DNA of 64,000 bases from Candidatus Omnitrophota bacterium (GCA_003141835.1 PLNR01000009.1:72307-136306), one strand, 5' to 3'. Shown: positions 2,139 to 55,566, counted from the stretch's first letter. Notes: generated by a model from the letters alone, not told the origin. Program-made: numbers and translations.

Positions 2139-2139
2139 A

Positions 2140-37086: not shown

Positions 37087-37106
37087 TTTAATTGGAGGGA
37101 TGCGAG

Positions 37107-37586: not shown

Positions 37587-38182
37587 ACGCAAGATCTCGC
37601 AAAGGATTAAGCCTGGTTGAATTGATGGTAACCATAGGCATAATGGTTATAGTCGGGGGGATCCTGGCGCGTTTCCTTGTTATAGGAGGCGCGGCATGGC
37701 ATTCCGGGGACGCCGCTATACAGGCAGCCCAGGAAGCAAGAAAAGGCATAATGTACATGACAAGGGAATTACGGCAGGCCAATTTAGCCTCCCTGGCTAA
37801 TACGGCAGGCGCGAAATACGCGCAACATCCAAATACCGACTATAACTCCGTCGTCTTCCGGGTCGTGACCGTCTTTGCCGGTAACAATAATTACGGCGCC
37901 TACGGTTCCGTGATGACTAATGCCGGCGTGCCGAACTTGTCCGCTCCTATCTCTTATTACATAAATAACAACCAGCTGATAAGGCTCAAGGACAATGTCA
38001 CCAAAGTGCTTGCGAACAATGTGACCGGACTGGCGTTCCGCCTGCAAAAAGATTCTTATACGCTGAATGGCCAGGAATGCGCGGTCACGACTCTCTTGAT
38101 AACGCTGCAGACATCGAAGACCACTGCAGAGAGAAGGCAAATCCCGATGACTTTAACCAGCGCCGTCTTATTGAGGAACTAA
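37583..38182 (+). CDS. Minor pilin/pseudopilin (PilW-like).
   Basis: MNARSRKG then LSLVELMVTIGIMVIVGGIL. ATGA overlap with the upstream gene. Confidence 0.8.
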   Translation: MNARSRKGLSLVELMVTIGIMVIVGGILARFLVIGGAAWHSGDAAIQAAQEARKGIMYMTRELRQANLASLANTAGAKYAQHPNTDYNSVVFRVVTVFAGNNNYGAYGSVMTNAGVPNLSAPISYYINNNQLIRLKDNVTKVLANNVTGLAFRLQKDSYTLNGQECAVTTLLITLQTSKTTAERRQIPMTLTSAVLLRN

Positions 38183-38185
38183 AAA

Positions 38186-39508: not shown

Positions 39509-39930
39509 AGATATCAAAAACTCAAATAGCCATAATAATATGTTTATGCATCCTCGCGGTAATAATCATCCTCTCGCTCGGCAGGCCACAATCAAAACCT
39601 GCCGCGACGGCGGGACCTGAAGCCAGGCCGGAAGAACAAGCGCTCCCGCAGGCCGGGAAATATGAATTGCCGCCGCAGGAGAATGCCGGATATCCGGCTT
39701 CGCAACCCGTGAACACTCAGTCCGCGAAACCGGCATCGACGCCTTCGGCGTCGACAACACCCGGGACTTTATCTGAAAATACGCAAAGTCCCAATAACAG
39801 CTCGAACGGCGGGATATTGAATCCGGAGCAAGTTTACGAACCGTCGCCTGACCTGCCGCAAAAACCGCCTAAGCTGCCGCCTCCGGAAAAAATGCAGGAG
39901 ATGCAAAGAAGGGGCATAGTGGCGTTCTGA
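39505..39930 (+). CDS. Small membrane-anchored Pro/Ser/Thr-rich protein, last gene of the minor-pilin operon.
   Basis: TM helix IAIIICLCILAVIIILSL, then a low-complexity P/S/T/Q-rich tail. Overlaps the upstream gene by 4 nt. Confidence 0.5.
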   Translation: MKISKTQIAIIICLCILAVIIILSLGRPQSKPAATAGPEARPEEQALPQAGKYELPPQENAGYPASQPVNTQSAKPASTPSASTTPGTLSENTQSPNNSSNGGILNPEQVYEPSPDLPQKPPKLPPPEKMQEMQRRGIVAF

Positions 39931-39946: not shown

Positions 39947-40381
39947 CTATTCTACCGGGACGCCTGACGCGTCGTCTATCCTTATCACCCCGGACTCATC
40001 CACAAAGAAGATCCTGATGCCGGTGATGTTGGGAGTTATCGGGGTCGCCGTGCAGGTGTACTGGTTCGGGCCCACAAAAGTGTAATTGAAATTATATCCC
40101 TGCTTCGCTCCCCCACCCAGGGTAGGATCTATATATGGCGGGTTTTCAGTGCTTAATGTCACAAGGTCCGGAGGGTATGTGGGCGGGTTCTGCATGCTGC
40201 GGTAACTCTCGCAGCCGGTGCTTATCGTCCTCATCGAGCCTATCGCCGACGATTCATTCGCGATGACCCTCGCCCGCAGGAAACCGGGTATCGCGATGAC
40301 CGCGAGCGTGACAAGTATGGCCACGACGATCATTATCTCGACAAGCGTAAAACCTTTCCTGCGGTCCTGGCCCTTACACAT
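39947..40381 (-). CDS. pilA: Type IVa major pilin, paralog 3.
   Basis: MCKGQDRRKG then FTLVEIMIVVAILVTLAVIAIP. C-terminal Cys pair CESY...YTCTATP. The ORF-track start at 40417 is a TTG lying inside a -35 box. Confidence 0.85.
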   Translation of the reverse strand: MCKGQDRRKGFTLVEIMIVVAILVTLAVIAIPGFLRARVIANESSAIGSMRTISTGCESYRSMQNPPTYPPDLVTLSTENPPYIDPTLGGGAKQGYNFNYTFVGPNQYTCTATPITPNITGIRIFFVDESGVIRIDDASGVPVE

Positions 40382-40389
40382 GCTATTTA

Positions 40390-40417
40390 ATCTATAACCA
40401 AAACATAAAAATGTCAA
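40390..40417 (-). promoter_or_regulatory. Putative sigma70 promoter (TTGACA-16-ATAGAT) for pilin paralog 3. It implies a leaderless mRNA.
   Basis: The -10 element ends about 9 nt before the ATG at 40381 and there is no Shine-Dalgarno. Confidence 0.3.
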
Positions 40418-40444
40418 CCCTTCGTTTCGCGCAGGGCAGGCATA

Positions 40445-40480
40445 ACAAAAAGGCGAGGACTTTACTCCTCGCCTTTTCGC
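40445..40480 (-). terminator. Intrinsic terminator after pilin paralog 2.
   Basis: GGCGAGGA-cttta-TCCTCGCC is a perfect 8-bp stem. It is flanked by an A-tract and a T-tract (minus-strand RNA ...GGCGAGGAguaaagUCCUCGCCuuuuuguu). Confidence 0.7.
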
Positions 40481-40499
40481 ATACTTTACGCCCTGAGCG

Positions 40500-40931
40500 T
40501 TATTCTATCGGGTTGCCCGCGGCGTTCGTCAATCTTATTACGCCCGACTCGTCAACGAAGAACACCCTCGTACCGGTTACGTTAGCCGTAACAGGCGTAG
40601 CCGTGCAGGTATACTGGTTCGCGTTTACCAAAGCGTAAACGAAACCGTAACCCTGCTTTGTACCACCGGCCAACGTCGTATCGATGTACGGAGGAGTAGC
40701 GGCGCCTAAAGCTGCCAAGGTGGCCGGATATGTAACCGGGCTCTGGGCTGCTCTGAAGCTTTCACATGCCGTGCTTATCGTACGGAGTGAACTTATCGCT
40801 GCTGCTTCGTTAGCATTGAGTCTAGCGCGTAGTAAGTTGGGTATCGCTATGGCGGCTAAAAGAGCTATAATGGCAACTACGATCATGATCTCAACGAGCG
40901 TAAAACCCTTTCTTCCTACTAGCATTCTCAT
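40500..40931 (-). CDS. pilA: Type IVa major pilin, paralog 2.
   Basis: MRMLVGRKG then FTLVEIMIVVAIIALLAAIAIP. Cys pair CESF...YTCTATP. AGGAGGGG-7nt-ATG. Confidence 0.9.
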   Translation of the reverse strand: MRMLVGRKGFTLVEIMIVVAIIALLAAIAIPNLLRARLNANEAAAISSLRTISTACESFRAAQSPVTYPATLAALGAATPPYIDTTLAGGTKQGYGFVYALVNANQYTCTATPVTANVTGTRVFFVDESGVIRLTNAAGNPIE

Positions 40932-41015: not shown

Positions 41016-42227
41016 CTATTTGCCGACGACCTGGATCAGCTTCACTATCGGCAGGAACATCGATACGACGATGCCGCCTACCACGATCCCGAGGAAAGCG
41101 ATTATAAGCGGCTCTATCAGGCTCGTCAACCCGGATACGGCCGCGTCGACTTCGCTCTCGTAAAAATCGGCGACCTTCCCGAGCATCTCCTCGAGCTTGC
41201 CTGTCTGCTCCCCCACCGAGATCATCCTCGTTACCATCGGCGGGAAGACCTTGCTTGCTGTCAGCGGCTGCGCTATCGACTCGCCTTCCTTGATGCTCAT
41301 CTTGGTCTTCAGGACCGCCGCCTCTATTACCCTGTTGCCCGAGGTCTTTCCCACTATTTCAAGCGCCGTCAATATCGAAACGCCGCTCTTCTGTAACGTC
41401 GAAAGCGTGCGCGCGAACCTCGCGATGGCCACCTTCCTTAATAACGGCCCGATAACGGGTATCTTCAACAAGAAAGTGTCGAAGGCAAGCCTTCCCTTAT
41501 CCGTCTTTATGACCTGCGAAAGCGATATGGAACCTATCACCAATCCTATAATAACGAAAAGCAGGTAGCCCCTCACGATATGGGAGATCTTTATCAGTAT
41601 AAGCGTAGGCAGAGGCAGTGTTACGCCGATGGTGGCGAATATGCTCTCGAACGTCGGGACTACTTTGACTATCAGGAAAGTCGTGATAAGGATCGCCATC
41701 GTAACAACGACCGCCGGATATATGAGGCTCGATTTTACTTTCCTTATCAGGGCGATCGTCTTTTCCATGTAGATGGCGACCCTGTCGAGGATCTCATCAA
41801 GGTTGCCGCTCGACTCGCCTGCCCTGACCATGTTTATGAAGAAAGGAGAAAATACATTCGGCTGTTTGCCCAGCGCCTCGGAGAGGCTCAGCCCTCCCTC
41901 GACATTATCGCGGACCCTCTTTACGACGTTCTTGAAACCCTTGCTCTCCATCTGATCCTGGAGCGCGTCAAGGGCGCCGACGAGCGGTATGCCGGCGTCG
42001 ACCATCGTGGCGAGCTGCCTGGAGAAGACGACCAGGTCATCCATTTTTACCTTCCCGCCGCCTCCGAAGGACAGCCCCTTGGCCGTTTCCTTCGCCTCGC
42101 TCAGCGAAATTATCACGTATTCCTTCTGCCTGAGCATGTCTACCAGGGCGATGCTGCTGGGCGCTTCCATGGTGCCGGATATCGTCCTGCCGTCCTTATC
42201 CTTCGCGGTATATTTGAATTGGGGCAC
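41016..42227 (-). CDS. pilC: Type IV pilus platform protein PilC (GspF family).
   Basis: MPQFKYTAKDKDGRTISGTMEAPS, two T2SSF domains, three TM helices. Confidence 0.9.
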   Translation of the reverse strand: MPQFKYTAKDKDGRTISGTMEAPSSIALVDMLRQKEYVIISLSEAKETAKGLSFGGGGKVKMDDLVVFSRQLATMVDAGIPLVGALDALQDQMESKGFKNVVKRVRDNVEGGLSLSEALGKQPNVFSPFFINMVRAGESSGNLDEILDRVAIYMEKTIALIRKVKSSLIYPAVVVTMAILITTFLIVKVVPTFESIFATIGVTLPLPTLILIKISHIVRGYLLFVIIGLVIGSISLSQVIKTDKGRLAFDTFLLKIPVIGPLLRKVAIARFARTLSTLQKSGVSILTALEIVGKTSGNRVIEAAVLKTKMSIKEGESIAQPLTASKVFPPMVTRMISVGEQTGKLEEMLGKVADFYESEVDAAVSGLTSLIEPLIIAFLGIVVGGIVVSMFLPIVKLIQVVGK

Positions 42228-42228
42228 T

Positions 42229-43938
42229 TTATTCCTCCGACGTTACCCTTAAGACTTCCTCTATGGTGGTATGGCCCAAAGCCAGGTTCTCGAGCGCGGC
42301 CGCGCGCAGGGTGAGCATCCCCTTCTCTTTCACGCAATATTCTTTTATCTTATCGCTCTGCACCCTGTCAAGTATCATCTCTTTTATCTTGTCGTCTACG
42401 GTGAGGTTCTCGAGGATGGCGAACCTGCCGTAATACCCCGTATTATTGCATTTGGCGCACCCTTTTCCCTTAAAGAAGGCCGCTTTCTCCTTTTCCTTAT
42501 ATCCTATTTTGTCCAGTATCTCCTTTGGGATGACGATCTTCTCTTTGCAATTCGCGCATACCCTCTTCATCAACCTCTGCGCGCATATAAATACCACGCT
42601 GGACGCTACCAAAAACGGCTCGACGCCCATGTCTATAAGCCTTGTTATGGCGCTCGGCGCGTCGTTCGTGTGCAGGGTCGAAAGGAGTAATTGTCCGGTG
42701 AGCGACGCCTTGATAGCTATATCCGCGGTCTCGAAATCGCGGATCTCGCCGACCATGACGATATCCGGCGCCTGGCGCAGGAAAGCGCGCAGGCCGCCCG
42801 CAAAGGTAAGGCCTATCTCCGGCTTGACCTGAACCTGGGTTATCCCCATGAGCTCGTATTCGATCGGGTCCTCTATCGTGACGATATTCTTTTCCGGCGT
42901 ATTCAATATATTAAGGATGGAATAAAGGGTCGTGGACTTGCCGCTCCCGGTCGGCCCGGTCACAAGGAACATCCCGTAAGGCCTGGAGATCGCCTCCCTT
43001 AATTCCTCCAGGGTCTTGGGGAGGAAGCCGAGTTTTTCCGGGGAAACTTTAATGCTCGATTTATCGAGGACCCTCAGGACGACCTTCTCGCCGTGGACCA
43101 GAGGCAGGGTTGAAACGCGGAAATCTATCTCCCTCTCCTCCATCCTCACCTTGAACCTGCCGTCCTGCGGGAGGCGCCATTCGGTGATATCCATGTCCGA
43201 CATTATCTTGATCCTGGTAAGCACCGCGTTCTGGTTCGATTTCGGCAGGTGCGAGAATTCCGTAAGCGCGCCGTCGATACGGTAGCGTATGCGCAAGTCT
43301 GTCTCCATGGGTTCCACATGGATGTCGGAGGCGCGGCGTTTGAGCGCCTCGCTTATTATGACGTCGACCATCTTGAGTATCGGCGCCTTCTGGCTCTCTA
43401 TGGCCAGCGTGGAAACATCGAACCGTTCCGCATCCCCGGTCTGGAGGAGTTCCAGTTCGTCGTCCTTGACGTCTTTTACTATCTTATCTATGGAAAGCGT
43501 CTCTTCCCCGTAATAGGCCGCGATCGAGGCGATGATATCCTTATCCGTAGCTATGACCGGGTCTATCTCGTATTTAGTCAGGATCTTCAGGTCATCGAGG
43601 GCGAATATGTCGAGCGGATCGGACATGGCCACGGTCATGCGGTTGCCGATCTTCGAAACCGGGATAAGATGGTAAAGGCGCGCGATCTTCACTGGGACAA
43701 GGGAGATGATCTCCTTGTCTATCTTGTATTTCGCCAGGTTTATCGGAGTTATGTTGAGTTCCTGGCTGAATATCGATAAAAGCTCGTTCTCATTGACGAG
43801 CCCCTTCTGCACAAGGATCTTGCTCAGGCTGCCGCCCTTCTCTTTCTGGGTCTTTATGGCCTCGTCCAGTTTCTCCCTGGATATGGAGCCTTTATTCACC
43901 AGGACTTCGGCTAATTTATCTCTTATGCTCTGTGCCAT
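42229..43938 (-). CDS. pilB: GspE/PilB-family pilus assembly ATPase, paralog 3, with an MshEN-type N-domain.
   Basis: Walker A GPTGSGKSTT. CANC...CAKC. N-terminal KLAEVLVNKGSISREKLDEAIKTQKE is an MshEN motif. Confidence 0.9.
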   Translation of the reverse strand: MAQSIRDKLAEVLVNKGSISREKLDEAIKTQKEKGGSLSKILVQKGLVNENELLSIFSQELNITPINLAKYKIDKEIISLVPVKIARLYHLIPVSKIGNRMTVAMSDPLDIFALDDLKILTKYEIDPVIATDKDIIASIAAYYGEETLSIDKIVKDVKDDELELLQTGDAERFDVSTLAIESQKAPILKMVDVIISEALKRRASDIHVEPMETDLRIRYRIDGALTEFSHLPKSNQNAVLTRIKIMSDMDITEWRLPQDGRFKVRMEEREIDFRVSTLPLVHGEKVVLRVLDKSSIKVSPEKLGFLPKTLEELREAISRPYGMFLVTGPTGSGKSTTLYSILNILNTPEKNIVTIEDPIEYELMGITQVQVKPEIGLTFAGGLRAFLRQAPDIVMVGEIRDFETADIAIKASLTGQLLLSTLHTNDAPSAITRLIDMGVEPFLVASSVVFICAQRLMKRVCANCKEKIVIPKEILDKIGYKEKEKAAFFKGKGCAKCNNTGYYGRFAILENLTVDDKIKEMILDRVQSDKIKEYCVKEKGMLTLRAAALENLALGHTTIEEVLRVTSEE

Positions 43939-43941
43939 AAT

Positions 43942-45645
43942 TTAATCCTGCTCCCCGAGGGTCACGCGCACCACCTCTTCAAGGGTCGTGGTCCCGTCAA
44001 AAACCTTCCTCAAGCCGCTCTCCCTTAAAGTCACGAGTCCGGCCCTGCGCGCCGCTTCGTAGACGACGGACTCGTGCGCCCTCTTGGCTATAAGCTCCCT
44101 CAGCTCCGGGTTTATAGCTACCGCCTCTATAAGGCCTATCCTTCCCCTGAAGCCGGTCTTGAAACAATGGTCGCAGCCTTTGCCCTTGTAGAACTTCACG
44201 TTCTCAGGCGCCTTTATCTTAAGTTTTTCGAGCAATGACTTGTGTATTTCCTGGACCTCTTTGCAGCGCGGGCAGATCTTCCTGACAAGCCGCTGGGCAG
44301 CTACAAGGACCACCGAAGAACTGATAAGGAACGGCTCGACTCCCATATTCATCAGCCTCATTATGACGCCGGTCGCCGTGTTGGTATGCAGCGTGCTGAG
44401 CACGAGGTGCCCGGTCAGCGCGGCTTTTATCGCGATGTCGACGGTCTCCAGGTCCCTTATCTCGCCGACCATTATGACGTTAGGATCCTGCCGCAGTATG
44501 GAGCGCAGCGTCGCCGCGTACGTCAACCCGATATTTGTATTTATATTGACCTGGTTTATCCCCGGCAGCAGGTATTCGACGGGATCTTCTACGGTGACGA
44601 AATTCTTTTCCGGCGCGTCTATATGCTTGATGACCGAATACAGGGTCGTCGTCTTCCCTGAACCTGCAGGGCCGCAGACGAGTATCATACCGTGGGGCCT
44701 CCTCGAGGCCTTCTTTAATTCATCGAGGGGTTCCTTCTCGAACCCCAGCCTGTCGACATCGAGCATGGCCTGGGACCTGTCGAGGATCCTGAGCGCTACC
44801 TTTTCGCCGAACGCGGTCGGGACGGTCGAGACCCTGAAGTCGACCTCCCTCTCCTGCACCTTTATCTTGAACCTTCCGTCCTGGGGCAGGCGCCGCTCGG
44901 CGATATTGAGGTTCGACATGACCTTGATCCTGGATATTATGCCCGACTGTATCGTCCTCGGCAGCGATTGCGCCTCCCTGAATATCCCGTCGATCTTATA
45001 CCTGATGCGCAGGTGGTCTTCCATCGGTTCTATGAGGATATCGCTCGCCCTCGCTTTCGTCGCTTCCAGGACTATAGCGCTAGTGAGTTTTACAACCGGC
45101 GTATCGGCTACCGCGCCCAGCACCTCGATCGACTCATCTTCCGGTCTCCTGGAAGAGATGAGCTCTATGTTAGTCTCTTTTACCAGCGCTTCGATGGTCG
45201 AGGTCGCCGCGGTCCCGTAATGCTGGTCTATCGCGGCCTTGACGTCGTCCTGCGTGGTTATGATAGGCGTGATGTCCATGCCGGTGACGTTCTTTATGTC
45301 GTCAAGGGCGAAGACATTAAGCGGGTCTGCCATCGCGACGGTGAGGATGTTGCCCATCTTCGATATAGGCATGATCTGGTAATTGACGGCTATCTTTTTC
45401 GGGATGAACTTGGTTATTTCCGGGTCTATCTTGAACTTGGAAAGGGATATCGGCGGGATGCCGAGTTCCTGGCTTACGATCGCAAGTAATTCCCTCTGCG
45501 TTATCGCGCCCAGGGAGACAAGGATATCTCCCAGCGAACCGCCCTTCTCTTTCTGGGCTTGAAGGGCCTGGTTCAATTTCTCTTCGGTGATCGCCCCTTT
45601 TTTTAACAGTATCTCGCTTAGCCGTTCCTTGATCCCAGATGGCAT
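43942..45645 (-). CDS. pilB: GspE/PilB-family pilus assembly ATPase, paralog 4, with an MshEN-type N-domain.
   Basis: GPAGSGKTTT. CPRC...CDHC. N-terminal RLSEILLKKGAITEEKLNQALQAQKE. Confidence 0.9.
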   Translation of the reverse strand: MPSGIKERLSEILLKKGAITEEKLNQALQAQKEKGGSLGDILVSLGAITQRELLAIVSQELGIPPISLSKFKIDPEITKFIPKKIAVNYQIMPISKMGNILTVAMADPLNVFALDDIKNVTGMDITPIITTQDDVKAAIDQHYGTAATSTIEALVKETNIELISSRRPEDESIEVLGAVADTPVVKLTSAIVLEATKARASDILIEPMEDHLRIRYKIDGIFREAQSLPRTIQSGIISRIKVMSNLNIAERRLPQDGRFKIKVQEREVDFRVSTVPTAFGEKVALRILDRSQAMLDVDRLGFEKEPLDELKKASRRPHGMILVCGPAGSGKTTTLYSVIKHIDAPEKNFVTVEDPVEYLLPGINQVNINTNIGLTYAATLRSILRQDPNVIMVGEIRDLETVDIAIKAALTGHLVLSTLHTNTATGVIMRLMNMGVEPFLISSSVVLVAAQRLVRKICPRCKEVQEIHKSLLEKLKIKAPENVKFYKGKGCDHCFKTGFRGRIGLIEAVAINPELRELIAKRAHESVVYEAARRAGLVTLRESGLRKVFDGTTTLEEVVRVTLGEQD

Positions 45646-45661: not shown

Positions 45662-46108
45662 CTATTTTTTGTAGAACTTATCGATCGCCTGCTTTATGTC
45701 TGTCGCGGTAGAAACGAATATCTGTATCGAACAGCCTGTCACCATCTCTATGTCCTCGACCGCCTGGATGTTCAGCGGGTCGGCCATCGCGATGGTCACG
45801 GTATTGCCGATCTTATCTATCGGTATGAGGCAATACTGGCGCGCGACGTTCTCCGGCACCATCTTTATCGCCGACTCGTCCATCTCGTAATTGGCAAGCG
45901 GCAGGTACGGGAAACCGTACTGGACCGTGATGGCTTGGGCAATTTGCTCCTCAGTTACATATCCGAGCCCAGCCAGGATCTGGCCCAAAAGCCCGCCCTT
46001 CTCCTTCTGGATCTTCAGGGCCTCGTCGAGATGCGCCTGTTTTATCACGCCTTTTTCCAGGAGGAGCTGTCCGATCGTTTTAGTTATTACGCGCTTTACC
46101 GACGCCAT
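45662..46108 (-). CDS. Stand-alone GSPII_E N-terminal (MshEN-like) domain protein, a putative c-di-GMP receptor.
   Basis: 148 aa. KTIGQLLLEKGVIKQAHLDEALKIQKE matches the MshEN c-di-GMP-binding motif. There is no ATPase domain. Confidence 0.75.
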   Translation of the reverse strand: MASVKRVITKTIGQLLLEKGVIKQAHLDEALKIQKEKGGLLGQILAGLGYVTEEQIAQAITVQYGFPYLPLANYEMDESAIKMVPENVARQYCLIPIDKIGNTVTIAMADPLNIQAVEDIEMVTGCSIQIFVSTATDIKQAIDKFYKK

Positions 46109-46114
46109 ATGGCC

Positions 46115-47182
46115 CTATTTCCTGAATAACCTGTCAAGATCGTCCGGATCAGTGCTGCGAAGTATCGCGTCCTCGTAACTTATCAATTTCTTGTTGTAGA
46201 GCTCGAATAGGGTCTGGTTCATCGTCCTCATGCCCTCTTTCTGGCTCGTCTGTATCACCGAATATAATTGGTGCGTCTTCGCCTCGCGCACCAGGCTCCT
46301 AACCGCCGGGGTAGCGATCAATACCTCGGTCGCCAGTACCCTGCCGTGGCCGCTGGCCTTGGGTATGAGCTGCTGGGCGAGGATCCCCAGGAGCACAAAT
46401 GAAAGCTGTATCCTGACCTGCTGCTGCTGGTGGGAAGGAAATACGTCTATGACCCTGTTTATCGTCTGGACCGCGTCAGAGGTATGGAGCGTCGAAAGTA
46501 CGAGATGGCCCGTCTCTGCGATATCCAGGGCGGCCTCGATCGTCTCGAGGTCGCGCATTTCACCGATGAGTATGACATTCGGGTCCTGCCTTAATACATG
46601 TTTCAAGGATTGCGCGAATGACTGCGTATCCGACCCGACCTCGCGCTGGTCGACCAGCGCTTTCTTGTTCTTGTGGACATACTCGATCGGGTCCTCCACG
46701 ATCACTATGTGGCAATTCTTCTCCGAGTTTATCTTGTCAACCATCGAGGCGAGCGTCGTGGACTTGCCGCTTCCGGTGGCTCCCGTGACAAGGACCAGCC
46801 CTTTGGGCCTTTTGCACAGGTCCTCTACGACATTGAGCGGGAGGCCGCACTCCTCGAAACTCATTATGTGGAGCGGAAGCAGCCTTACCGCCGCGCTGAC
46901 ATAACCTCTCTGGAGGAAGACATTGACCCTGAAACGCCCGAGCCCTTCTATGCCGAACGAGACATCAAGCTCAAGTTCCCGCTCGAACTTCTCTATATGC
47001 TGGGGCTTGAGCATGCTGTAAGCCAGCCTCTTGGTGTCCTCGGCCGCGAGGGTGCCGAATTCGGTCGGCACTAATTGCTCGTCTATCCTAAGCAGGGGCG
47101 GGGCAAATACGGAAATATGCAGGTCGGACGCCCCTTTCTGGACCATCAGTTTAAGCAGTGTCTCTATCTGGACATTCACCAT
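46115..47182 (-). CDS. pilT: Twitching motility retraction ATPase PilT.
   Basis: MVNVQIETLLKLMVQKGASDLHISV...VTGATGSGKSTTLASMVD...GEMRDLETIE. Confidence 0.95.
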   Translation of the reverse strand: MVNVQIETLLKLMVQKGASDLHISVFAPPLLRIDEQLVPTEFGTLAAEDTKRLAYSMLKPQHIEKFERELELDVSFGIEGLGRFRVNVFLQRGYVSAAVRLLPLHIMSFEECGLPLNVVEDLCKRPKGLVLVTGATGSGKSTTLASMVDKINSEKNCHIVIVEDPIEYVHKNKKALVDQREVGSDTQSFAQSLKHVLRQDPNVILIGEMRDLETIEAALDIAETGHLVLSTLHTSDAVQTINRVIDVFPSHQQQQVRIQLSFVLLGILAQQLIPKASGHGRVLATEVLIATPAVRSLVREAKTHQLYSVIQTSQKEGMRTMNQTLFELYNKKLISYEDAILRSTDPDDLDRLFRK

Positions 47183-47198
47183 GGGACCTCCTTAAGGA

Positions 47199-48638
47199 TT
47201 AAGAGACTATCGTATTCTTTCCCTTTGCTTTCGCTTCGTTCAGGGCTGAATTCGCTTTTTTTATCAGGTCTTCGGCGGCCACGCCGTCTATCGGGTTCTC
47301 GCTCACGCCGCCGCTTACGGTCACGAAGTTGCGCGGATAACCTTTGCCGCCGGTGATGCCGAAAGCCTCTACGCGCTGCTTGAGGACTTCAGCCGCCGTA
47401 TTCCCCTGTTTCTTGTTCTTCTCCGGCAGTATCACGGCGAACGTATCTCCGCTCAATCTGCCGACCCTGTCAACCTCGGTAATGTTGGATTCTATTATCT
47501 TGCCGATCTTTTTTATGGTATCTTCGGCCGCCAACTCCCCGTTTATGTCCCTGTATAAATTGAGGTCGTCGATATTAAAAAGCAAAAACGAGCACGGCCG
47601 CTGGTACAGCACGGCGCGCTTAATCTCTTCCTCGAGACGGGACATGATGAATTTCTCGTTATAGAGGCCGGTGAGTTCGTCCTTGATGGCCAGTTCCTTT
47701 GCCTTGGCCGTCAATAATTCGTTCTCAACGGCTATGGCCGTCTGTTTCGCGAAAAGTTTTATAAGTTCAGCGTCCTCTTCCTTGAACTCATAATCCGGCG
47801 CCGTATTGCATAACCCTATTACCCCGAAGCCGCGCCCGTGCGCGACAATGGGAGAAAGGAGGCAATTCGTTACGCTGAAGACCTTCCGGAATTCCTCGAT
47901 GTCCGGCGTAATGCGCGACCGCCTGTCTATGGTGGCCATCTTGTTATCGGCGACGAGTTTTCCGAGGAGCCCCGTGCCTATCTTGATCCGGAACGAATTC
48001 AGGCTGCCGCTCAGGTTCTCGCTCTCTTTCATCACGAGGGTATTCTTCTCCTCGGTAAGCATCACGAACGCGGACGAATCTTCCTCGACTTGGCTGATCT
48101 TGCCGATGGTTATCTTAAGTATCTCCTCGAGCGAAGCTCCCTGCGAGATGAGATTGCTGACCTGAAGGAGGCTCGACATGATAAGGACCTTCTTGTTGAT
48201 CTCTACGTTTATCTCTTTGGTCCTCTCGCCGTAGGAACGCAGTTCGTCCATGTTCTCGCGTATACGGCGGGTGAGCACGTTAAGGGTGGTGCCGAGCTCT
48301 CCCACCTCGTCCTCGGTCTTGACATCTATGCTCCTCGAGAAATCGCCGTTAGCGATGCCCTTGGCCCTGGCAGCCATATCGATTATCGGCGAGGCGATGT
48401 CCCAGATGATCTTGAAGCCGAGCACGGCGATGAGCATGGTTATACCTATGATCAGCGAGACGTTTTTCGTCGTGAAATCCAAGTCGATATTCGGCTGGAG
48501 GAACGGGAAATAAATGAAATTGTAAGCGAGATAGACACAGATGGCAAGCGGTATGAAGGACATCAACACGAAAACAACGGTTAGCTTATAACGGAGACCG
48601 GCGGGTATAAGCGACAGTTTCTTGATTATTCCTGCCAT
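47199..48638 (-). CDS. Membrane sensor protein with TM, HAMP, GAF and a degenerate GGDEF domain (SGDTF in place of GG[DE]EF).
   Basis: Two TM helices and a HAMP-like segment. A GAF-like region. The C-terminal GGDEF fold (LTGLYNEKF...RLSGDTFAVILPE) has a degenerate active site and no RxxD I-site. The likely start is the ATG at 48638, after a GGGAGA Shine-Dalgarno. Confidence 0.75.
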   Translation of the reverse strand: MAGIIKKLSLIPAGLRYKLTVVFVLMSFIPLAICVYLAYNFIYFPFLQPNIDLDFTTKNVSLIIGITMLIAVLGFKIIWDIASPIIDMAARAKGIANGDFSRSIDVKTEDEVGELGTTLNVLTRRIRENMDELRSYGERTKEINVEINKKVLIMSSLLQVSNLISQGASLEEILKITIGKISQVEEDSSAFVMLTEEKNTLVMKESENLSGSLNSFRIKIGTGLLGKLVADNKMATIDRRSRITPDIEEFRKVFSVTNCLLSPIVAHGRGFGVIGLCNTAPDYEFKEEDAELIKLFAKQTAIAVENELLTAKAKELAIKDELTGLYNEKFIMSRLEEEIKRAVLYQRPCSFLLFNIDDLNLYRDINGELAAEDTIKKIGKIIESNITEVDRVGRLSGDTFAVILPEKNKKQGNTAAEVLKQRVEAFGITGGKGYPRNFVTVSGGVSENPIDGVAAEDLIKKANSALNEAKAKGKNTIVS

Positions 48639-48671
48639 CTTTATCATCTCCCTTCGTAATTTATTATAAAA

Positions 48672-48700
48672 AGTATACCTGTTCCTAAATTAGGTGTCAA
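48672..48700 (-). promoter_or_regulatory. Sigma70 promoter (TTGACA-17-TATACT) upstream of the sensor-pilT-mshEN-pilB-pilB-pilC gene string.
   Basis: Read directly from the sequence. It is followed by a GGGAGA Shine-Dalgarno. Confidence 0.5.
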
Positions 48701-48706
48701 ACATAA

Positions 48707-50341
48707 TTATCGCAACGCGATAAATCCCCAGGGCAGCCTTTCGTCTAACCCACGCTCTCTCAATGAATAACGATCCGGGTCTATGCCTGCTTCGCGGAAA
48801 GCCGGCAGCCACTTTTCGAGGTCGAAATTTTCCTTCCAGCTGTCGAACCGGCACCCGTTTTTCCAGGCAAGATAAAGCGCCTTTGAGAGTTCCCTGTCCC
48901 CGCGCGCGAAGACCGCCTCCAGGTAGCTCATCTTCGGGTCATGGAAAACAAATTTTACCCTTGTCCGCCTCGCCTTCTCCCTTATATACCTCTGCCTCCT
49001 GTATACCTCATCGGCCGGAAGCATCGCCTCGCGTTCAAACCTCGTATGCGGCTTCGGGATAAAGACCGATACCGCGGCATTTATGTCGGCGGGCCTGCCG
49101 TCGACCTTCTTTTTTGTCTCGGAGACCTCCCTGGCCAGGTCGACGATGGCATCGAGGTCGCTGTCATCCTCTCCGGGCAGGCCGATCATGAAATATAGCT
49201 TTATCCTGCGCCAATTGTTCTTGAAAGCCTGGTACGCGCATTCTTTTAGCGCCTCCGGCGGTATATTTTTATTGATCGCCTTTCGCAACTTATCGCTGCC
49301 GACCTCCGGAGCGAAGGTAAGACCCGTATGCCTGCCCGAGGTGAGCTCGAGCGGGAACCGGCTCGTCATCTCCTCGACCCTGAGCGACGGGAAAGAGATG
49401 CTTACCGCCCTCTCCTTGAAGGCCCCTGTCAGCGATGTCACTATCTCCATTATCTGCGGGTGGTCGCCCGAGGATAATGAGACGAGCGATATCTCGTCAT
49501 AGCCCGTATTTTTATATATCTTCTCAGCCAGCGAGAGTATCTTCGACGGCGAACGGAAACGGTTGGGCCCGTATATCGCGCACGCCTGGCAGAAATTGCA
49601 CGCCCTCCTGCAGCCGCGCATTATCTCTATCTGTATCCTGTCATGGACGACGTTTATGAAAGGCACTACCGGCTTTTCCGGGAACGGCGCGGCCTCGAGG
49701 TCGGCGATGAACCTTTTATTTACCTTCTTCGAAATGGAGGGTACATACACGCCTTCGAGCGCGGCAAGTTTTTCCAACAACGCGCGCCGGCCCGAGCCGT
49801 CTTTCTTGTTCTCTATCACCGCGTCGACGACTTCCAGTATCGCCTCCTCGGCCTCGCCGATGATGAAACAATCGAAGAAATCCGCGACCGGTTCGGGATT
49901 GAAAGCGCACGGCCCGCCGCCCACTATGAGAGGACTGGAGCCGTCGCGGTCTTTCGAAAAGAGCGGTATGCCGGAAAGGTCGAGCATGTTAAGGATATTC
50001 GTATAACTCAACTCATACTGGAGGGAAAATCCAACTATGTCGAACTTGCCGAGCGGCCGGCGCGTCTCAAGGGAAAAAAGCGGTATCTTATTCTCCCTCA
50101 TGGCCTTTTCCATATCGTGCCACGGCGCGAACGAGCGTTCGCATGCGACATCGCCCCTGTCATTGAGGATGGAATAGAGGATCTTCAACCCGAGATGGCT
50201 CATCCCGACTTCGTAGAGGTCGGGGAAACATAAGGCGACCCTGCAGCCTATCCCCTTATCCCCTTTTACGACGCTGTTCCATTCGCCGCCCGTGTACCGG
50301 GCGGGTTTTTCCACGCCGAGGAGTATCTCGTCGGTCAGCAT
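48707..50341 (-). CDS. B12-binding-domain radical SAM protein, TIGR03960 family.
   Basis: CRRACNFCQAC (CxxxCxxC) radical SAM cluster motif. 544 aa. Its start overlaps the rodA stop (ATGA). Confidence 0.85.
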   Translation of the reverse strand: MLTDEILLGVEKPARYTGGEWNSVVKGDKGIGCRVALCFPDLYEVGMSHLGLKILYSILNDRGDVACERSFAPWHDMEKAMRENKIPLFSLETRRPLGKFDIVGFSLQYELSYTNILNMLDLSGIPLFSKDRDGSSPLIVGGGPCAFNPEPVADFFDCFIIGEAEEAILEVVDAVIENKKDGSGRRALLEKLAALEGVYVPSISKKVNKRFIADLEAAPFPEKPVVPFINVVHDRIQIEIMRGCRRACNFCQACAIYGPNRFRSPSKILSLAEKIYKNTGYDEISLVSLSSGDHPQIMEIVTSLTGAFKERAVSISFPSLRVEEMTSRFPLELTSGRHTGLTFAPEVGSDKLRKAINKNIPPEALKECAYQAFKNNWRRIKLYFMIGLPGEDDSDLDAIVDLAREVSETKKKVDGRPADINAAVSVFIPKPHTRFEREAMLPADEVYRRQRYIREKARRTRVKFVFHDPKMSYLEAVFARGDRELSKALYLAWKNGCRFDSWKENFDLEKWLPAFREAGIDPDRYSLRERGLDERLPWGFIALR

Positions 50342-51447
50342 CAGAAGACTTTGCGTTTATTTTTTATGTTCTCGAGGATGCCTACGCAGGCGAGGGACAT
50401 TATAAGGAAGGAACCGCCGTATGAGACGAAAGGAAGCGGCAGGCCGACTACAGGCATTATGCCGCAGACCATGCCGATATTCACTATCACATGCACGGTG
50501 AACATCGTGGTTATCCCGTAGGCAAGGGTCTTGCCGTATGTGTCGCTTGTCGTCTCGGCGATCCTTATCCCCTTATCCACGAAACTGTAAAAAAGGAACA
50601 AGAGCAAGGCGCCGCCTATGAACCCCCACTCCTCGCCCACCACCGAGAAGATGAAATCCGTGTGGCGCTCAGGCAGGAAGTTCAGCTGGTTCTGCGTCCC
50701 GGCGAGCCATCCCTTGCCTAATATCCCTCCCGATCCTATCGCTATCTTGGATTGTATGATCGTATATCCCGCGCCGAGCGGGTCCAGGTTGGGGTTGAGG
50801 AAGACTAAAAGCCGCGCCCTCTGGTAATCCTTCAGGATGAACCACAAAAACGGCACGCACGCCAGCCCTGCGCCGATCATGAAAAGAAGGTATTTCGGCC
50901 GCGCCCCGGCGATCAGCAGCATGGTAAAGAGGATCGGCACGAAGATCAATGCCGTCCCGAGGTCCGGTTCCTTGAATATGAGGAGCATCGGGACCACGGC
51001 CATGGCGAAAGGAATGATCAGGGCCTTCATCTCTCCTATGCCTTCCTTTATGTCGCCGAGATATTTTGCCAGCGCGAATATAAAAGTGACCTTCGCGAAT
51101 TCAGACGGCTGGAACGCGAACGAGCCGAACTCTATCCACCTCCTCGCCCCGTAACGGACATCCCCGATGCCGGGGACGAGGACAAGGACCAGGAACAGGA
51201 CGTTCAGGCCGAAGATGTAATAACTGAAATCTATTATCCTCTGGTAGCCTATCCTGAATATCACCACGGCGACAACAAGGCCGATCGCCGCGGAATTGAC
51301 CTGCCTCATCGCGAGGTTCGCGTTCGAGGAGACGAGTTTCTGGTACGAGGCGCTGTAGACGACGAAGAGCCCCATGAGCAGGATTATCGCCGTTATGAGC
51401 ACGAGCCCGTAATCGAATTCGCCTTTTAACTTATACCCGTTCTTCAT
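50341..51447 (-). CDS. rodA: Peptidoglycan glycosyltransferase RodA (SEDS family).
   Basis: 368 aa polytopic membrane protein, FtsW/RodA motifs, located downstream of mrdA. Confidence 0.9.
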   Translation of the reverse strand: MKNGYKLKGEFDYGLVLITAIILLMGLFVVYSASYQKLVSSNANLAMRQVNSAAIGLVVAVVIFRIGYQRIIDFSYYIFGLNVLFLVLVLVPGIGDVRYGARRWIEFGSFAFQPSEFAKVTFIFALAKYLGDIKEGIGEMKALIIPFAMAVVPMLLIFKEPDLGTALIFVPILFTMLLIAGARPKYLLFMIGAGLACVPFLWFILKDYQRARLLVFLNPNLDPLGAGYTIIQSKIAIGSGGILGKGWLAGTQNQLNFLPERHTDFIFSVVGEEWGFIGGALLLFLFYSFVDKGIRIAETTSDTYGKTLAYGITTMFTVHVIVNIGMVCGIMPVVGLPLPFVSYGGSFLIMSLACVGILENIKNKRKVF

Positions 51448-53168
51448 TTGAATATTTCCGTGTTATCCTTGGCGAAATCCAGCACCTTCTTCGCTATGTC
51501 CGCGGCAGTCACGCCGCCGTGGCCGCCGTGTTCGACCATGACCACAAAAGCTATCTTCGGGTCTTCAGCCGGCGCGAAACCCAAGAACCACGCGTGCGGA
51601 TCGCCGTTAGGCGTCTGCGCGGTGCCGGTCTTCGCAGCAACCTTTATCCCCTCTATCCTGGCCCTCTGCCCGGTACCGGTATCCGAGGCGACGACGTTCA
51701 CCATCGCGGACTTTATCGTCTGCATCGCTGCCTTTGAGACCGGTATCGTCCTCGGTTTAGGCACCTGCACATAGTCATTGCCGACCTTCTTTAAAATATG
51801 CGGCCTCGGCGCGCTGCCCTCGGTCGCAAGCGCCGAAACGACCTCGACCATCTGCAGCGGCGTCACAAGGAGATCGCCCTGGCCTATGGCGTAATTGATC
51901 GTCTCGCCCTCATACCAGGCCTGCCCTCTCCTCGCTTTTTTCCAGGCGGGATTCGGCACGAGGCCGGCGCTTTCGCCGGCGATATCAATGCCTGTGGGCC
52001 TCCCCAAGCCGAACTTCTGGGCATATTCAGAGATCGTATCCGGCCCCAGCTTGTGCCCGAGATTGTAAAAATAAACGTTGCATGAATGCGTTATCGCATC
52101 GCGAAGGTCCTGCGGCCCGTGGCCTCCTTCTTTCCAGCAGTCGAACTCGGCCCTTCCGAGGTAGAATTTCCCGGTGCAGACGAAAGTCGTATGCTCGGTA
52201 ATTGTCTTCGTCTCGAGGCCTGCGTCCGACATTATTATTTTAAAAATTGAGCCGGGCGGGTACTGGCCGTTCACCGCGCGGTTGAGCATCGGGTGCGAGC
52301 CGGACTTCATGTAATCAAGCACCTGTTCGCCCTTGCCCCGCTCTACGAATATATTCGAGTCGAATGACGGAGATGAAACCAAGGCTAATATCTCCCCATT
52401 GCGCGGGTCCATGATGACAAGCGAACCCTTGACCCCTTCGAGGCAATCGGCCGCGTAGGCCTGCAATTTCGCATCGACGGTCAGGGTGATATCCTCGCCC
52501 TTCTTCTGGTTCTTGCTCCCGAGGATCTTGACCAGCCTGCCTGAGGCATCCACTTCCAGCTGCGTGCCGCCGTCCTCGCCCTTGAGGTATTTGTCGTATG
52601 CCCTCTCGATGCCGGAACGGCCGACCAGGTCATCTCCCGAATACCCGTAATCCCTGAGCCTCTCAAGCTCTTCCTTGTTTATGAGGCTTAGGTAACCGAT
52701 GAGGTGCGATGTTCTTTCGCCGTAGATATACCACCGCAGCGTCCTCGGGAGGACCAGGACCCCGGGCAGCTCCTGTTTCTTCTCCTCCAGGCGGAAGGCG
52801 AGATCCTTATCTACGTCGCCTGCTATGGTTATCGGCGCGAACGGCGCGGTATAATCTTTTTTCACTATCGATTCGATGCGGGACCTCGAAATGCCGAGGG
52901 CCTGGGAGAGGCGGCCGTATGTCGTATCGACATTCTCGACCTCCTGCGGGATTATGACGACATCAAAAGAGAGGCGGTTGTCGACTATCGCGAGGCCGTT
53001 CCTGTCGTAGATAGTGCCGCGAAGGCCGGGCAGCGGTATGAGCCTTATGTGGTTCTTCTTGGACAGGTCGTGATAGAGCGGCCATCTCAATATCTGCAGA
53101 TAGACGAGCCCCGCCAGTATGACCAGGAACAATATATCGACTATGACCGAATATATCCTACCGCGCAT
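51444..53168 (-). CDS. mrdA: Penicillin-binding protein 2 (elongasome transpeptidase).
   Basis: PBP dimerisation domain and transpeptidase motifs STFK-like (GSIFK), SxN, KTGT. Confidence 0.9.
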   Translation of the reverse strand: MRGRIYSVIVDILFLVILAGLVYLQILRWPLYHDLSKKNHIRLIPLPGLRGTIYDRNGLAIVDNRLSFDVVIIPQEVENVDTTYGRLSQALGISRSRIESIVKKDYTAPFAPITIAGDVDKDLAFRLEEKKQELPGVLVLPRTLRWYIYGERTSHLIGYLSLINKEELERLRDYGYSGDDLVGRSGIERAYDKYLKGEDGGTQLEVDASGRLVKILGSKNQKKGEDITLTVDAKLQAYAADCLEGVKGSLVIMDPRNGEILALVSSPSFDSNIFVERGKGEQVLDYMKSGSHPMLNRAVNGQYPPGSIFKIIMSDAGLETKTITEHTTFVCTGKFYLGRAEFDCWKEGGHGPQDLRDAITHSCNVYFYNLGHKLGPDTISEYAQKFGLGRPTGIDIAGESAGLVPNPAWKKARRGQAWYEGETINYAIGQGDLLVTPLQMVEVVSALATEGSAPRPHILKKVGNDYVQVPKPRTIPVSKAAMQTIKSAMVNVVASDTGTGQRARIEGIKVAAKTGTAQTPNGDPHAWFLGFAPAEDPKIAFVVMVEHGGHGGVTAADIAKKVLDFAKDNTEIFK

Positions 53169-53177
53169 ATTTATATT

Positions 53178-53708
53178 TTATTGAGGGCGCCTGCCCTCAA
53201 ACACCTTTTTCTTGAAGACTATCTCTTTATAGTCCGTTTCTACGGACGGCATGAAAAATTCGAGGACCTTGAAGACAAGAGGCGCCAATAACGAAGTATA
53301 TACCGCCGCGGGTATGGCGAGGAAGAAGACCGCCCTGTAATAAGGAAATCCGGACGAGCAGATGAACAGGTCGTAGATGAGCATCGAAGACGCGGCCGCG
53401 GCGGCAGCCATTATCATCTGCGCCGACGCCAAATGCCTGTAAAGCGCTTCTTTATATAAGCCCGCGATATAACCGATCGCCCCGTAAAGTATGAGTATCA
53501 AAGGATGCGCGCCTGAGAAGGCCATCTCCAGGAGCCCGCCGAAGAAGCCGCAGGCCGCGCCCTTCTCTTTATTGGAATTAAGCGAGAAAAAGAGGACGCC
53601 TATGAGGACGAGTTCCGGGCTTACGCCGAGAAGTTTTATGTAATTACAGCTTCCCGCCTCAAGGATAGAAATTATAACCAGCGTTATGATGATCCTGGGC
53701 CAGCTCAT
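53178..53708 (-). CDS. mreD: Rod shape-determining protein MreD.
   Basis: 176 aa polytopic membrane protein following mreC. Confidence 0.8.
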   Translation of the reverse strand: MSWPRIIITLVIISILEAGSCNYIKLLGVSPELVLIGVLFFSLNSNKEKGAACGFFGGLLEMAFSGAHPLILILYGAIGYIAGLYKEALYRHLASAQMIMAAAAAASSMLIYDLFICSSGFPYYRAVFFLAIPAAVYTSLLAPLVFKVLEFFMPSVETDYKEIVFKKKVFEGRRPQ

Positions 53709-54484
53709 TCTACCGCTAATACCTCCTCGATCGCCATCGGGTTTATCGCCGGCTCTATTACCGCGAACTGGTACATCTGGTTGAATTCAAGCCTGGCATC
53801 TATCACTTTCCCGGCGAGGAACCCCTGCGGATAGACGCCGCTCGTTCCGGAGGCGACGACAGTGTCGCCGGCCTTTATGTCCGCGTCCTTGGGTATGAAC
53901 TTCATTATGCACCGGCCGTGTGTGATGCCGTACATAAGGCCGCTCGCCCTCCCCCTCTGCGAGACGACCGCGACCCTTATCTCGGGATCCGTTACCAGCG
54001 ATACGCGCGAGCTCGATAAGCCGACCGCGGTGACTTTACCGATAATGACCCCGTCGGCCAGCACGGCCATGTCTTCCTTCATGCGGTCGTTGGCGCCTTT
54101 GTTTATTACCAGGCTCTCGGACCAGTTCGTCAGGTCCAGTTTGGTGACTTTGGCGGCTACGGAGCGCCGCCCGATCTTGTCCTTCATGGAGAGTATGCCC
54201 TTGAGCCTCCTGTTCTCGGAGACGGCCTCATCAAGCGCGGCGGCCCGGGACTTCAACGCCGCGGCATCGCGCTGCAATCTTTTATTTTCATTGGCTATGC
54301 TCTTGAAATGCAGGAGCTCGAACCCGGTTTCGACGACCGCGGACGCGATCTGCGCCGGGAGATGGAGGATGGAATTCAAACCTAAGGTAGTTCTGTTTGC
54401 GAGGGATTCAAACGCGATAAGCAGGATTATAAAAAGAGATACTGCGGCGACAAGAGTTAGAGGTTTGTTCTGGAATTTTTTCAC
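53705..54484 (-). CDS. mreC: Rod shape-determining protein MreC.
   Basis: TM helix, coiled coil and a beta-rich C-terminal domain. Sits between mreB and mreD. Confidence 0.85.
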   Translation of the reverse strand: MKKFQNKPLTLVAAVSLFIILLIAFESLANRTTLGLNSILHLPAQIASAVVETGFELLHFKSIANENKRLQRDAAALKSRAAALDEAVSENRRLKGILSMKDKIGRRSVAAKVTKLDLTNWSESLVINKGANDRMKEDMAVLADGVIIGKVTAVGLSSSRVSLVTDPEIRVAVVSQRGRASGLMYGITHGRCIMKFIPKDADIKAGDTVVASGTSGVYPQGFLAGKVIDARLEFNQMYQFAVIEPAINPMAIEEVLAVE

Positions 54485-54489
54485 ATCGT

Positions 54490-55566
54490 TTACTGTGATT
54501 CAGGGGACTTCGACGCGGTAGTGACCGTCACCTTCTTGAGATATTTTATTTCGCTTAAGACCATCCCTGTCCCGAGCGCGACCGCTGTGATCGGGTCCTC
54601 GGCTATGTGTACGGGAAGGCCTGTCTGTTCCGAAAGGAGTTTGTCCAGGCCCCTGAGCAACCCGCCGCCGCCTGCCAATACCATCCCGCGCTCTATGAGG
54701 TCCGCGGAAAGCTCCGGCGGTGTGCGCTCGAGGGTTATCCTGACCGCCTCGACTATGGCAGCTATTGGCTCCGCAAGAGCTTCTCTTACTTCCTCGGAAG
54801 AGATCGTGACCGTCTTCGGGAGGCCGGCAACCAGGTCGCGGCCGCGGACTTCCATCGTCATCTCCTCATCAAGCGGATAAGCCGAGCCTATCTTTATCTT
54901 TACCTCCTCGGCGGTGCGTTCGCCGATCATAAGATTATAAGTCTTTTTCAGGTGCTGTATTATCGCGTCGTCCATCTCGTCGCCGCCTATGCGGATAGAT
55001 TTCGAGTAGACTATATCGGAGAGTGAGACTACGGCCATCTCTGTCGTGCCGCCGCCGATATCGATAATCATGTTGCCGGCGGGTTCCTGTATCGGCAGCC
55101 CGACGCCTATCGCGGCCGCTATCGGCTCCTCGACGAGGTATACCTCGCGGGCGCCTGCCCTCTCGGCCGAATCCTTGACCGCGCGCTTCTCGACCTCGGT
55201 AATGCCCGAGGGGATGGCGATTACCATGCGCGGCCTGACCAAAACTCTCCTGTTGTGGACCTTATTAATAAAATACCGAAGCATAGCTTCGGTGATCTCA
55301 AAATCAGCAATAACTCCGTCTTTCATCGGCCTTATGGCCACTATCGAACCGGGGGTGCGGCCTAACATCCGCTTCGCCTCTTCGCCGACCGCCAGGACAT
55401 GGTTAGTCCCTTTCTGAATGGCGACGACCGAAGGTTCGCAAAGCACTATCCCTTGGCCTTTTACGTAAACAAGCGTGCTCGCCGTGCCAAGGTCGATGCC
55501 CATGTCGTTTGAGAACATGCCGGAGATATTGTTAAATCCCCTCTTTAAGACATCGAAAATGTTCAC
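54490..55566 (-). CDS. mreB: Rod shape-determining actin homolog MreB.
   Basis: [13 protein letters not shown]...IDIGGGTTE... Confidence 0.95.

Follow-up and report, generated by a model that had tools for sequence, protein, structure and literature searches.

A stand-alone MshEN protein as a candidate c-di-GMP receptor beside PilB motors predicted to be ligand-blind and a degenerate-GGDEF sensor in an Omnitrophota type IV pilus operon

How does the binding of cyclic di-GMP (c-di-GMP) to the N-terminal domain (N-domain) of a motor ATPase control a type IV pilus? A locus in a 64,000-nucleotide stretch of DNA from a Candidatus Omnitrophota bacterium (GCA_003141835.1, PLNR01000009.1:72307-136306; hereafter the window) bears on this question. 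Here, a 148-residue protein consisting only of an MshEN domain is encoded between a pilT gene and two pilB genes, in an operon that also encodes a membrane sensor with a degenerate GGDEF domain. The small protein is called SA (stand-alone MshEN protein) in what follows. The Omnitrophota are an uncultivated phylum of largely ultra-small, pili-rich bacteria, for which this module is a conserved, testable regulatory handle.

The explanation favoured here, with a confidence a little short of even, is that SA is a c-di-GMP receptor that acts in trans on motors blind to the ligand, and that the sensor contributes a second input, an anchor, or both, rather than the messenger. [quoted passage not shown] It would then work in trans on the motor complex, through PilB, the PilM/PilC platform or both, the PilB N-domains having lost their ligand contacts. 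The sensor would make no c-di-GMP. Instead, it would add a second input through its HAMP and GAF domains, or anchor SA at the membrane through its GGDEF domain, which is conserved though non-catalytic, or do both. The messenger itself would be supplied by canonical cyclases encoded elsewhere in the genome. What the analysis establishes is which genes are present, the fold, the conserved residues, the gene order, and the degenerate state of the cyclase domain and of the PilB motifs.

The features on which the argument turns are the following, with the basis of each assignment in brackets.

47199-48647, minus strand: membrane sensor, 482 residues (Pfam, hydropathy, alignment with PleD, 70 orthologues with a degenerate active site)
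47439-47453, minus strand: SGDTF codons, sensor residues 399-403, at the position of the GG[DE]EF signature (gap-free PleD alignment)
46115-47182, minus strand: PilT-type retraction ATPase, 355 residues, without an MshEN domain (Pfam T2SSE)
45662-46108, minus strand: SA, 148 residues (Pfam, PDB sequence matches, AlphaFold2 model, Foldseek, orthologues, and the ratio of non-synonymous to synonymous substitution rates, dN/dS)
46007-46078, minus strand: SA motif I, residues 11-34, TIGQLLLEKGVIKQAHLDEALKIQ
45920-45991, minus strand: SA motif II, residues 40-63, LLGQILAGLGYVTEEQIAQAITVQ, after the spacer KEKGG
43942-45645, minus strand: PilB paralogue 4 (PilB-4), 567 residues, MshEN and T2SSE domains (Pfam)
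42229-43938, minus strand: PilB paralogue 3 (PilB-3), 569 residues, MshEN and T2SSE domains (Pfam)
405-3849, minus strand: a separate tandem PilB pair, PilB-1 (405-2138) and PilB-2 (2140-3849)

An earlier note on this DNA had described the open reading frame (ORF) at 45662-46108, between pilT and pilB, as an MshEN domain and nothing else. This description is borne out. SA has one Pfam match, to MshEN (PF05157, residues 64-147), which scores 75.5 bits compared with a cut-off of 23.1. A phmmer search of PDB sequences matches the whole of SA to the N-domains from Geobacter PilB, Thermus PilF (E=3.6e-46) and Vibrio cholerae MshE (5HTL, E=1.7e-18). An AlphaFold2 model, with a predicted local distance difference test (pLDDT) score of 85, places helices at residues 12-18, 24-37, 41-47 and 53-64, followed by an alpha/beta part. 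This is the two-subdomain MshEN fold, a four-helix N-subdomain joined to an N1-like alpha/beta C-subdomain, and it is shared with V. cholerae MshE and with GSPII-B of Thermus thermophilus PilF (8PDK), at template modelling (TM) scores of 0.72-0.84. The top Foldseek match of the model is MshE in complex with c-di-GMP (5HTL; TM 0.80-0.84, root mean square deviation 2.2 Å). Helix 1 begins at motif position 2, so that SA is without the N-terminal extension that blocks binding in the GSPII-A domain of PilF.

The possibility that SA is a gene fragment or part of a split PilB was ruled out. Both neighbouring PilBs have full N-domains, and the SA ORF is complete in 80 species; its dN/dS of 0.04-0.07 indicates strong purifying selection.

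What holds the ligand in MshE and PilF GSPII-B is a pair of 24-residue motifs with a spacer of 5 residues between them. SA has both motifs in exact register, running TIG...Q (motif I) and LLG...Q (motif II) on either side of residues 35-39, and it shares the Gly, Gln and Leu/Ile positions that contact the ligand. Specifically, it retains G13, G20, Q34, G42, G49 and Q63, which correspond to G11, G18, Q32, G40, G47 and Q61 of MshE, and all of the hydrophobic motif positions. Substitutions at these sites differ in their effect. Binding is most sensitive to the Gly at motif position 3: G11I or G11L abolishes c-di-GMP binding by MshE, and Ala in its place weakens binding by PilF about 10-fold. The terminal Gln forms a hydrogen bond with the ribose-phosphate of the ligand. 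A Leu-to-Ile exchange within the hydrophobic cluster weakens binding by only about 2.4-fold.

The first residue of the motif is more variable. The earlier note had quoted the motif as RLG...Q; its Gly and Gln are intact in SA, but neither of the two SA motifs begins with Arg. The extended consensus (R/K/L)LG... (PMC11731258) allows Arg, Lys or Leu as the first residue; of these, Leu gives the highest affinity, as in PilF GSPII-B with its dissociation constant (KD) of 6 nM. Motif II of SA likewise starts with Leu, the GSPII-B state, which should be tolerated because the extended consensus covers it. Motif I starts with Thr, and thus one motif of the two has a first residue from this set. A relaxed regular expression for the motif, run over the window, matched only SA (motif II) and PilB-1.

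Do the ATPases beside SA bind the ligand as well? Unlike MshE and PilF, SA is a separate polypeptide that is not fused to a T2SSE ATPase, and the ATPases next to it carry N-domains of their own, which are degenerate. Pfam recognizes MshEN in each of the four PilB paralogues, with a model that spans mainly the C-subdomain rather than the binding site. In PilB-3 (KLA...Q and SLS...E) and PilB-4 (RLS...Q and SLG...E), both the Gly at motif I position 3 and the Gln at motif II position 24, each of them critical according to mutagenesis, have been replaced. PilB-2 is also degenerate (LIA...Q and RLS...E). Thus, of the three PilBs in which the earlier note saw the motif, PilB-1 (KVG...Q and LLG...R) is indeed near consensus, but the likeness in PilB-3 and PilB-4 is superficial. 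Since the domains are homologous, chance resemblance is not in question, and what counts is the set of ligand contacts that each has retained. Calling an MshEN motif on the Pfam match alone over-predicts c-di-GMP receptors.

Of the four, PilB-1 preserves its motifs best, the sole deviation at a key position being Arg for the final Gln. Unlike the PilBs beside SA, it may still bind c-di-GMP.

Relatives of SA were sought in one genome per species, and at least 512 genomes contain one. Residues were counted in the best 80 of these relatives, all at Omnitrophota-type loci, and in orthologues of the first (n=72) and second (n=59) PilB; motif conservation was followed in a set of 117 SA orthologues. 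All named SA homologues belong to the Omnitrophota. In MshE numbering, Gly11 is kept in 79/80 SA proteins, Gly18 in 70/80, Gln32 in 78/80, Gly40 in 80/80, Gly47 in 67/80 and Gln61 in 80/80. In the numbering of SA itself, Gly13, Gly20 and Gln34 are near-invariant, as are Leu40 (79/80), Gly42 (80/80) and Gln63 (80/80). The PilBs give a different picture. Orthologues of the first have Gly11 in 0/72, Gly40 in 14/72, Gln32 in 68/72 and Gln61 in 2/72, and those of the second have Gly11 in 0/59, Gly40 in 21/59, Gln32 in 49/59 and Gln61 in 12/59. A pattern scan that requires no alignment agrees with this census.

Because Gly11 is absent from all 72 and all 59 orthologues, PilB-3 and PilB-4 are predicted not to bind c-di-GMP, and SA looks to be the only binding-competent MshEN domain of its operon. 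The control layer of several c-di-GMP receptors that the earlier note had envisaged is thereby reduced to a single candidate. The PilB N-domains fold without these Gly and Gln residues; that SA keeps them is therefore a sign of ligand binding, and retention this close to absolute is best explained by selection on a ligand pocket. As a whole, SA is second only to PilT in conservation among the proteins of the operon, with a median identity of 62% (PilT, 66%; PilBs, 55%; sensor, 41%).

Several observations nevertheless weigh against a receptor role for SA or against its supposed surroundings. The residue at motif I position 1 is mostly Gln, Thr or His across the 80 species (Q50, T14, H6, K4, P3, R2), and so lies outside the Arg, Lys or Leu shown to be functional and differs from MshE and PilF. 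In PilF GSPII-A, Ser at motif II position 1 abolished binding, in a construct that also had Ala at the Gly position. Full-length GSPII-A with a perfect consensus still did not bind; therefore, context matters. For the structure of the Xanthomonas citri PilB N-domain with PilZ, the fit to the SA model (TM 0.77-0.78) falls little short of that of 5HTL. Among 85 non-ATPase relatives with MshEN domains, none is fused to a GGDEF, GAF or HAMP domain, and there is therefore no gene-fusion (Rosetta-stone) support for contact between SA and the sensor. Likewise, six-frame scans of the window with regular expressions found no GGDEF apart from that of the sensor and no EAL, HD-GYP or PilZ, and an Rfam search of the window found neither a c-di-GMP riboswitch nor any other family.

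The main rival, which is unlikely but has to be taken seriously, is that SA acts as an adaptor or decoy independently of c-di-GMP. It would amount to the N1 domain of PilB made as a protein of its own. Docked to PilM/PilC or the sensor, it would either compete with the PilB N-domains or bridge them, and its conserved motif residues would serve a protein interface rather than a nucleotide. Such docking has precedents. In type II secretion ATPases the N1/MshEN_C subdomain is the module that docks GspL/PilM, as it probably is in PilB, and the X. citri PilB N-domain is a platform for PilZ without binding c-di-GMP. The non-canonical start of motif I would suit an adaptor, as would the ability of context to block a perfect motif. 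The linker QYGFPYLPL and the C-subdomain of SA are also as invariant as the N-terminal motifs. However, the neighbouring PilB N-domains freely replace Gly11, Gly40 and Gln61 and still fold and presumably dock, whereas SA keeps these residues in 79-80 of the 80 species. The residues preserved in SA are exactly the ligand-contacting set known from crystal structures. Moreover, a second SA paralogue adjoins a canonical cyclase at two loci, L035 and L048.

The genes that accompany SA provide a further line of evidence. Among the 68 loci with sufficient flank, the sensor lies upstream of SA in 62. In 44/68 loci pilT stands between the two, mostly with gaps of 2-25 nt to SA. It is missing from this place in 20 more distant loci, and in 19 of these the sensor and SA adjoin or overlap (-10 to +61 nt); the gap at the other locus is 995 nt. 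Downstream of SA, two PilBs are found in 52/58 loci. Since pilT is absent at some loci where the sensor abuts SA and the PilB pair remains, the invariant core of the module is sensor-SA-PilB-PilB. The conserved partner of SA is thus the sensor, and not pilT.

A second rival, considerably less probable than an adaptor, gives SA to PilT all the same. PilT has no MshEN domain, and SA could be a translationally coupled N-domain that serves it in trans and allows it to dock to the platform or to respond to c-di-GMP. The SA start codon lies 6 nt past the pilT stop, and pilT is the gene immediately upstream in the 44 loci mentioned above. On the other hand, about 20 lineages without pilT at the locus still have SA and the PilB pair, and the next gene after SA is always pilB, which in the window begins 16 nt beyond the end of SA.

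Even less probable is the sink or buffer proposed in the earlier note, in which SA would take up c-di-GMP without any specific protein target. SA is small, soluble and single-domain, and the Leu of motif II predicts a high-affinity pocket. Nothing at the locus speaks specifically for a pure sink, though, and in hundreds of species SA holds a fixed operon position, tightly coupled with the sensor and the PilBs. Furthermore, the C-subdomain, which in MshEN domains is dispensable for ligand binding, is as conserved as the N-subdomain, and this argues for specific partners of SA.

If SA is a receptor that acts in trans, what does the sensor contribute? The sensor has two N-terminal hydrophobic segments according to hydropathy, and Pfam finds a HAMP (80-131), a GAF (171-308) and a GGDEF domain (321-478). 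This agrees with the membrane HAMP-GAF protein of the earlier note in all but its start: the ORF spans 47199-48647, and the note had begun it four codons later, at the second in-frame ATG (48638).

The GGDEF domain, noted at 47199-48240, can be aligned with PleD without gaps. In this alignment SGDTF falls on GGEEF (368-372) and TEVD on the RxxD I-site. Five catalytic positions have changed together (D327N, K332N, N335R, D344E, and GGEEF to SGDTF). The sensor thus has neither the residues of an active cyclase (GG[DE]EF with PleD D327, N335 and D344) nor those of a PelD-type I-site receptor, in which RxxD stands five residues upstream of the signature; TEVD stands there instead.

The same holds across 71 sensors, namely that of the window and 70 orthologues. 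Their signatures are hypervariable (SGDTF, SGDEF, GGDEF, GDHEF, GDDEF, TSDKF and others). Asn335 and Asp344 each occur in 1/71, position 344 being Glu in 65/71, and an RxxD I-site occurs in 0/71, no orthologue having Arg at its first position. The blocks YQRPC, PE.NK and SENP.DG are conserved at 90% or more. To judge from these alignments, the GGDEF domain is under selection, though not for catalysis or I-site binding, and the dead domain retains a conserved surface.

The view that a domain with SGDTF and no I-site is not a cyclase has therefore stood up to closer alignment. An intact GGDEF signature hidden by misalignment, a sequencing error and a pseudogene were each considered and rejected, since SGDTF coincides with the PleD signature, the 70 orthologues are equally degenerate with a free-running signature, and an 89%-identical relative is colinear. 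The suggestion that the GGDEF domain is itself a c-di-GMP receptor finds no support: the I-site is missing, and nothing ties this domain to c-di-GMP.

It is very improbable that the sensor is instead an active diguanylate cyclase that feeds SA locally, SGDTF being a sequencing error or a tolerated variant: a GGDEF signature does occur in 6/71 sensors and DgcJ-NfrB is a precedent for local pairing of a cyclase with MshEN, but five catalytic positions are altered together, Asn335 and Asp344 are almost never present, the signature varies freely beside well-conserved blocks, and the relative at 89% DNA identity confirms the region as colinear.

A source for the messenger can be sought in related genomes. 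In two other Omnitrophota genomes, L035 (13919-19653) and L048 (13863-19528), three extra genes follow the PilB pair in the same operon. The first encodes a canonical REC-GGDEF protein with GGEEF and RxxD, and another a GGDEF-AAA_16-HEAT protein of 1383 residues in L035 and about 1425 in L048. The remaining gene encodes a second stand-alone MshEN protein with motifs near consensus (LLG...Q and VLG...Q). Homologues of the REC-GGDEF protein are common in Omnitrophota metagenome-assembled genomes (MAGs), and GGEEF is present in 119/120 of the best. Because canonical REC-GGDEF cyclases occur in Omnitrophota, c-di-GMP is plausibly made within the phylum.

In some lineages a second stand-alone MshEN paralogue can also be found between the second pilB and pilC, at L047 6240-6740, L063 14027-14482 and L081 8758-9216. 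These proteins are 34-44% identical to SA.

The favoured reading, with SA as a receptor in trans, can be taken one step further, to a version that is possible but doubtful. In this version, c-di-GMP sensing has shifted off PilB onto a separate, near-invariant MshEN subunit, which the dead-GGDEF sensor recruits through the surface formed by YQRPC, PE.NK and SENP.DG, and the N-domains of PilB have turned into docking modules blind to the ligand. If so, pilus extension would need both c-di-GMP and a signal sensed in the envelope or by the GAF domain. The module would also equip a PilT-family motor with a detachable second-messenger subunit, something so far undescribed. In known systems, ligand binding at the N-domain barely alters ATPase activity in vitro. 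A receptor on one polypeptide and a ligand-blind copy on the motor would let binding, docking and ATPase activity be separated experimentally.

Parts of this arrangement are already known. An example of an MshEN-type protein without an ATPase is PA3740 of Pseudomonas aeruginosa, listed by Wang et al. (2016) as experimentally found to bind c-di-GMP and as involved in swarming motility. Compared by its description, PA3740 resembles SA in lacking the ATPase, but it combines MshEN_N with a highly diverged C-subdomain (N1) and belongs to beta- and gamma-proteobacteria. No report was found of PA3740 in a pil operon, with a dead-GGDEF sensor, or with PilBs that lack the motifs.

Accessory control of PilB is known from the FimX-PilZ-PilB system of Xanthomonas and Pseudomonas. 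There, too, a protein with a degenerate GGDEF domain, which in FimX is accompanied by EAL, and a small adaptor on PilB N1 control extension. As proposed for SA, c-di-GMP is sensed by an accessory protein and not by PilB. The two systems differ in that FimX binds the ligand through its EAL domain and its adaptor is of the PilZ fold, whereas the Omnitrophota module has no EAL or PilZ. Its candidate receptor is a copy of PilB N1/MshEN, and its GGDEF protein is membrane-bound and carries HAMP and GAF domains.

A membrane GGDEF protein paired with an MshEN effector is known from DgcJ-NfrB of Escherichia coli, where the pairing is physical. DgcJ is an active cyclase whose catalysis is required, whereas the Omnitrophota sensor is without catalytic residues; and the output of NfrB is a glycosyltransferase rather than a pilus motor.

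What appears to be new is a combination fixed throughout a phylum: an MshEN subunit that stands free, PilB N-domains predicted to be blind to the ligand, and a sensor whose GGDEF domain is dead. A 2024 review of PilB cofactors has no stand-alone MshEN protein among them, and a literature search found no description of this Omnitrophota module or of a stand-alone MshEN cofactor of PilB.

Outside the Omnitrophota, a count of stand-alone MshEN proteins (sought in a 50% library) is unreliable: 46/150 top matches have 220 residues or fewer, and at least one of these is a contig-end fragment (P0216); P0221 is a genuine stand-alone gene. The closest non-ATPase MshEN proteins in a global library (P0121-P0270) include arrays of up to seven MshEN repeats, of about 1300 residues. 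The 85 non-ATPase relatives include fusions to DUF4388 (18/85), to a GT2 glycosyltransferase (9/85), to PilZ (8/85) and also to REC. A fusion of MshEN with PilZ would unite two c-di-GMP receptor domains within one protein.

The window is Omnitrophota DNA, of which 14.5 kb is colinear with contig CAISWF010000137.1, from a Candidatus Omnitrophica MAG, at about 89% identity. PilB, PilT, PilC, pilins, PilM, PilO and the secretin are encoded together, as in a type IVa pilus cluster. The remaining features of the locus are as follows.

48707-50341, minus strand: B12/radical-SAM gene
48672-48700, minus strand: sigma-70-like promoter match, TTGACA-17-TATACT, 11/12 (consensus scan only)
41016-42227, minus strand: PilC platform protein, T2SSF (Pfam)
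39947-40931, minus strand: two pilin genes with an N-methylation motif (40500-40931 and 39947-40417)
35564-36490, downstream of the pilins: PilM
34292-34942, downstream of the pilins: PilO
32075-33928, downstream of the pilins: secretin

On the minus strand the genes run in the order mreB, mreC, a 176-residue ORF, pbp2, rodA, radical-SAM, sensor, pilT, SA, pilB, pilB, pilC and pilins. The 176-residue ORF occupies the position of mreD and has no Pfam match. Between the radical-SAM gene and the sensor is a gap of 59 nt that contains the sigma-70-like match, and the sensor may therefore head the transcription unit, a suggestion that relies on a promoter consensus scan only.

The cell-shape genes and the B12/radical-SAM gene (48707-55566) are colinear and adjoin the pilus sensor on its upstream side. 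Across Omnitrophota the order is kept: RodA comes first, in some cases radical SAM next, and then the sensor.

Between the pilins and pilM, the minus-strand pilus cluster is broken by a block of plus-strand genes (37092-39930). This block includes a 440-residue protein and a 214-residue pilin-like protein containing GLSLVELMV, as read from its translation.

Many MAGs with the Omnitrophota-type operon (L009, L012, L017, L018 and others), whose SA proteins are 82-92% identical to that of the window, are titled "uncultured Planctomycetia/Planctomycetales bacterium". These titles are probably an artefact of labelling at deposit.

Finally, the four PilB paralogues of the window form two tandem pairs (405-3849 and 42229-45645), with mutual identities of 41-50%. 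The conservation of a tandem PilB pair hints at two distinct motors or at hetero-oligomers.

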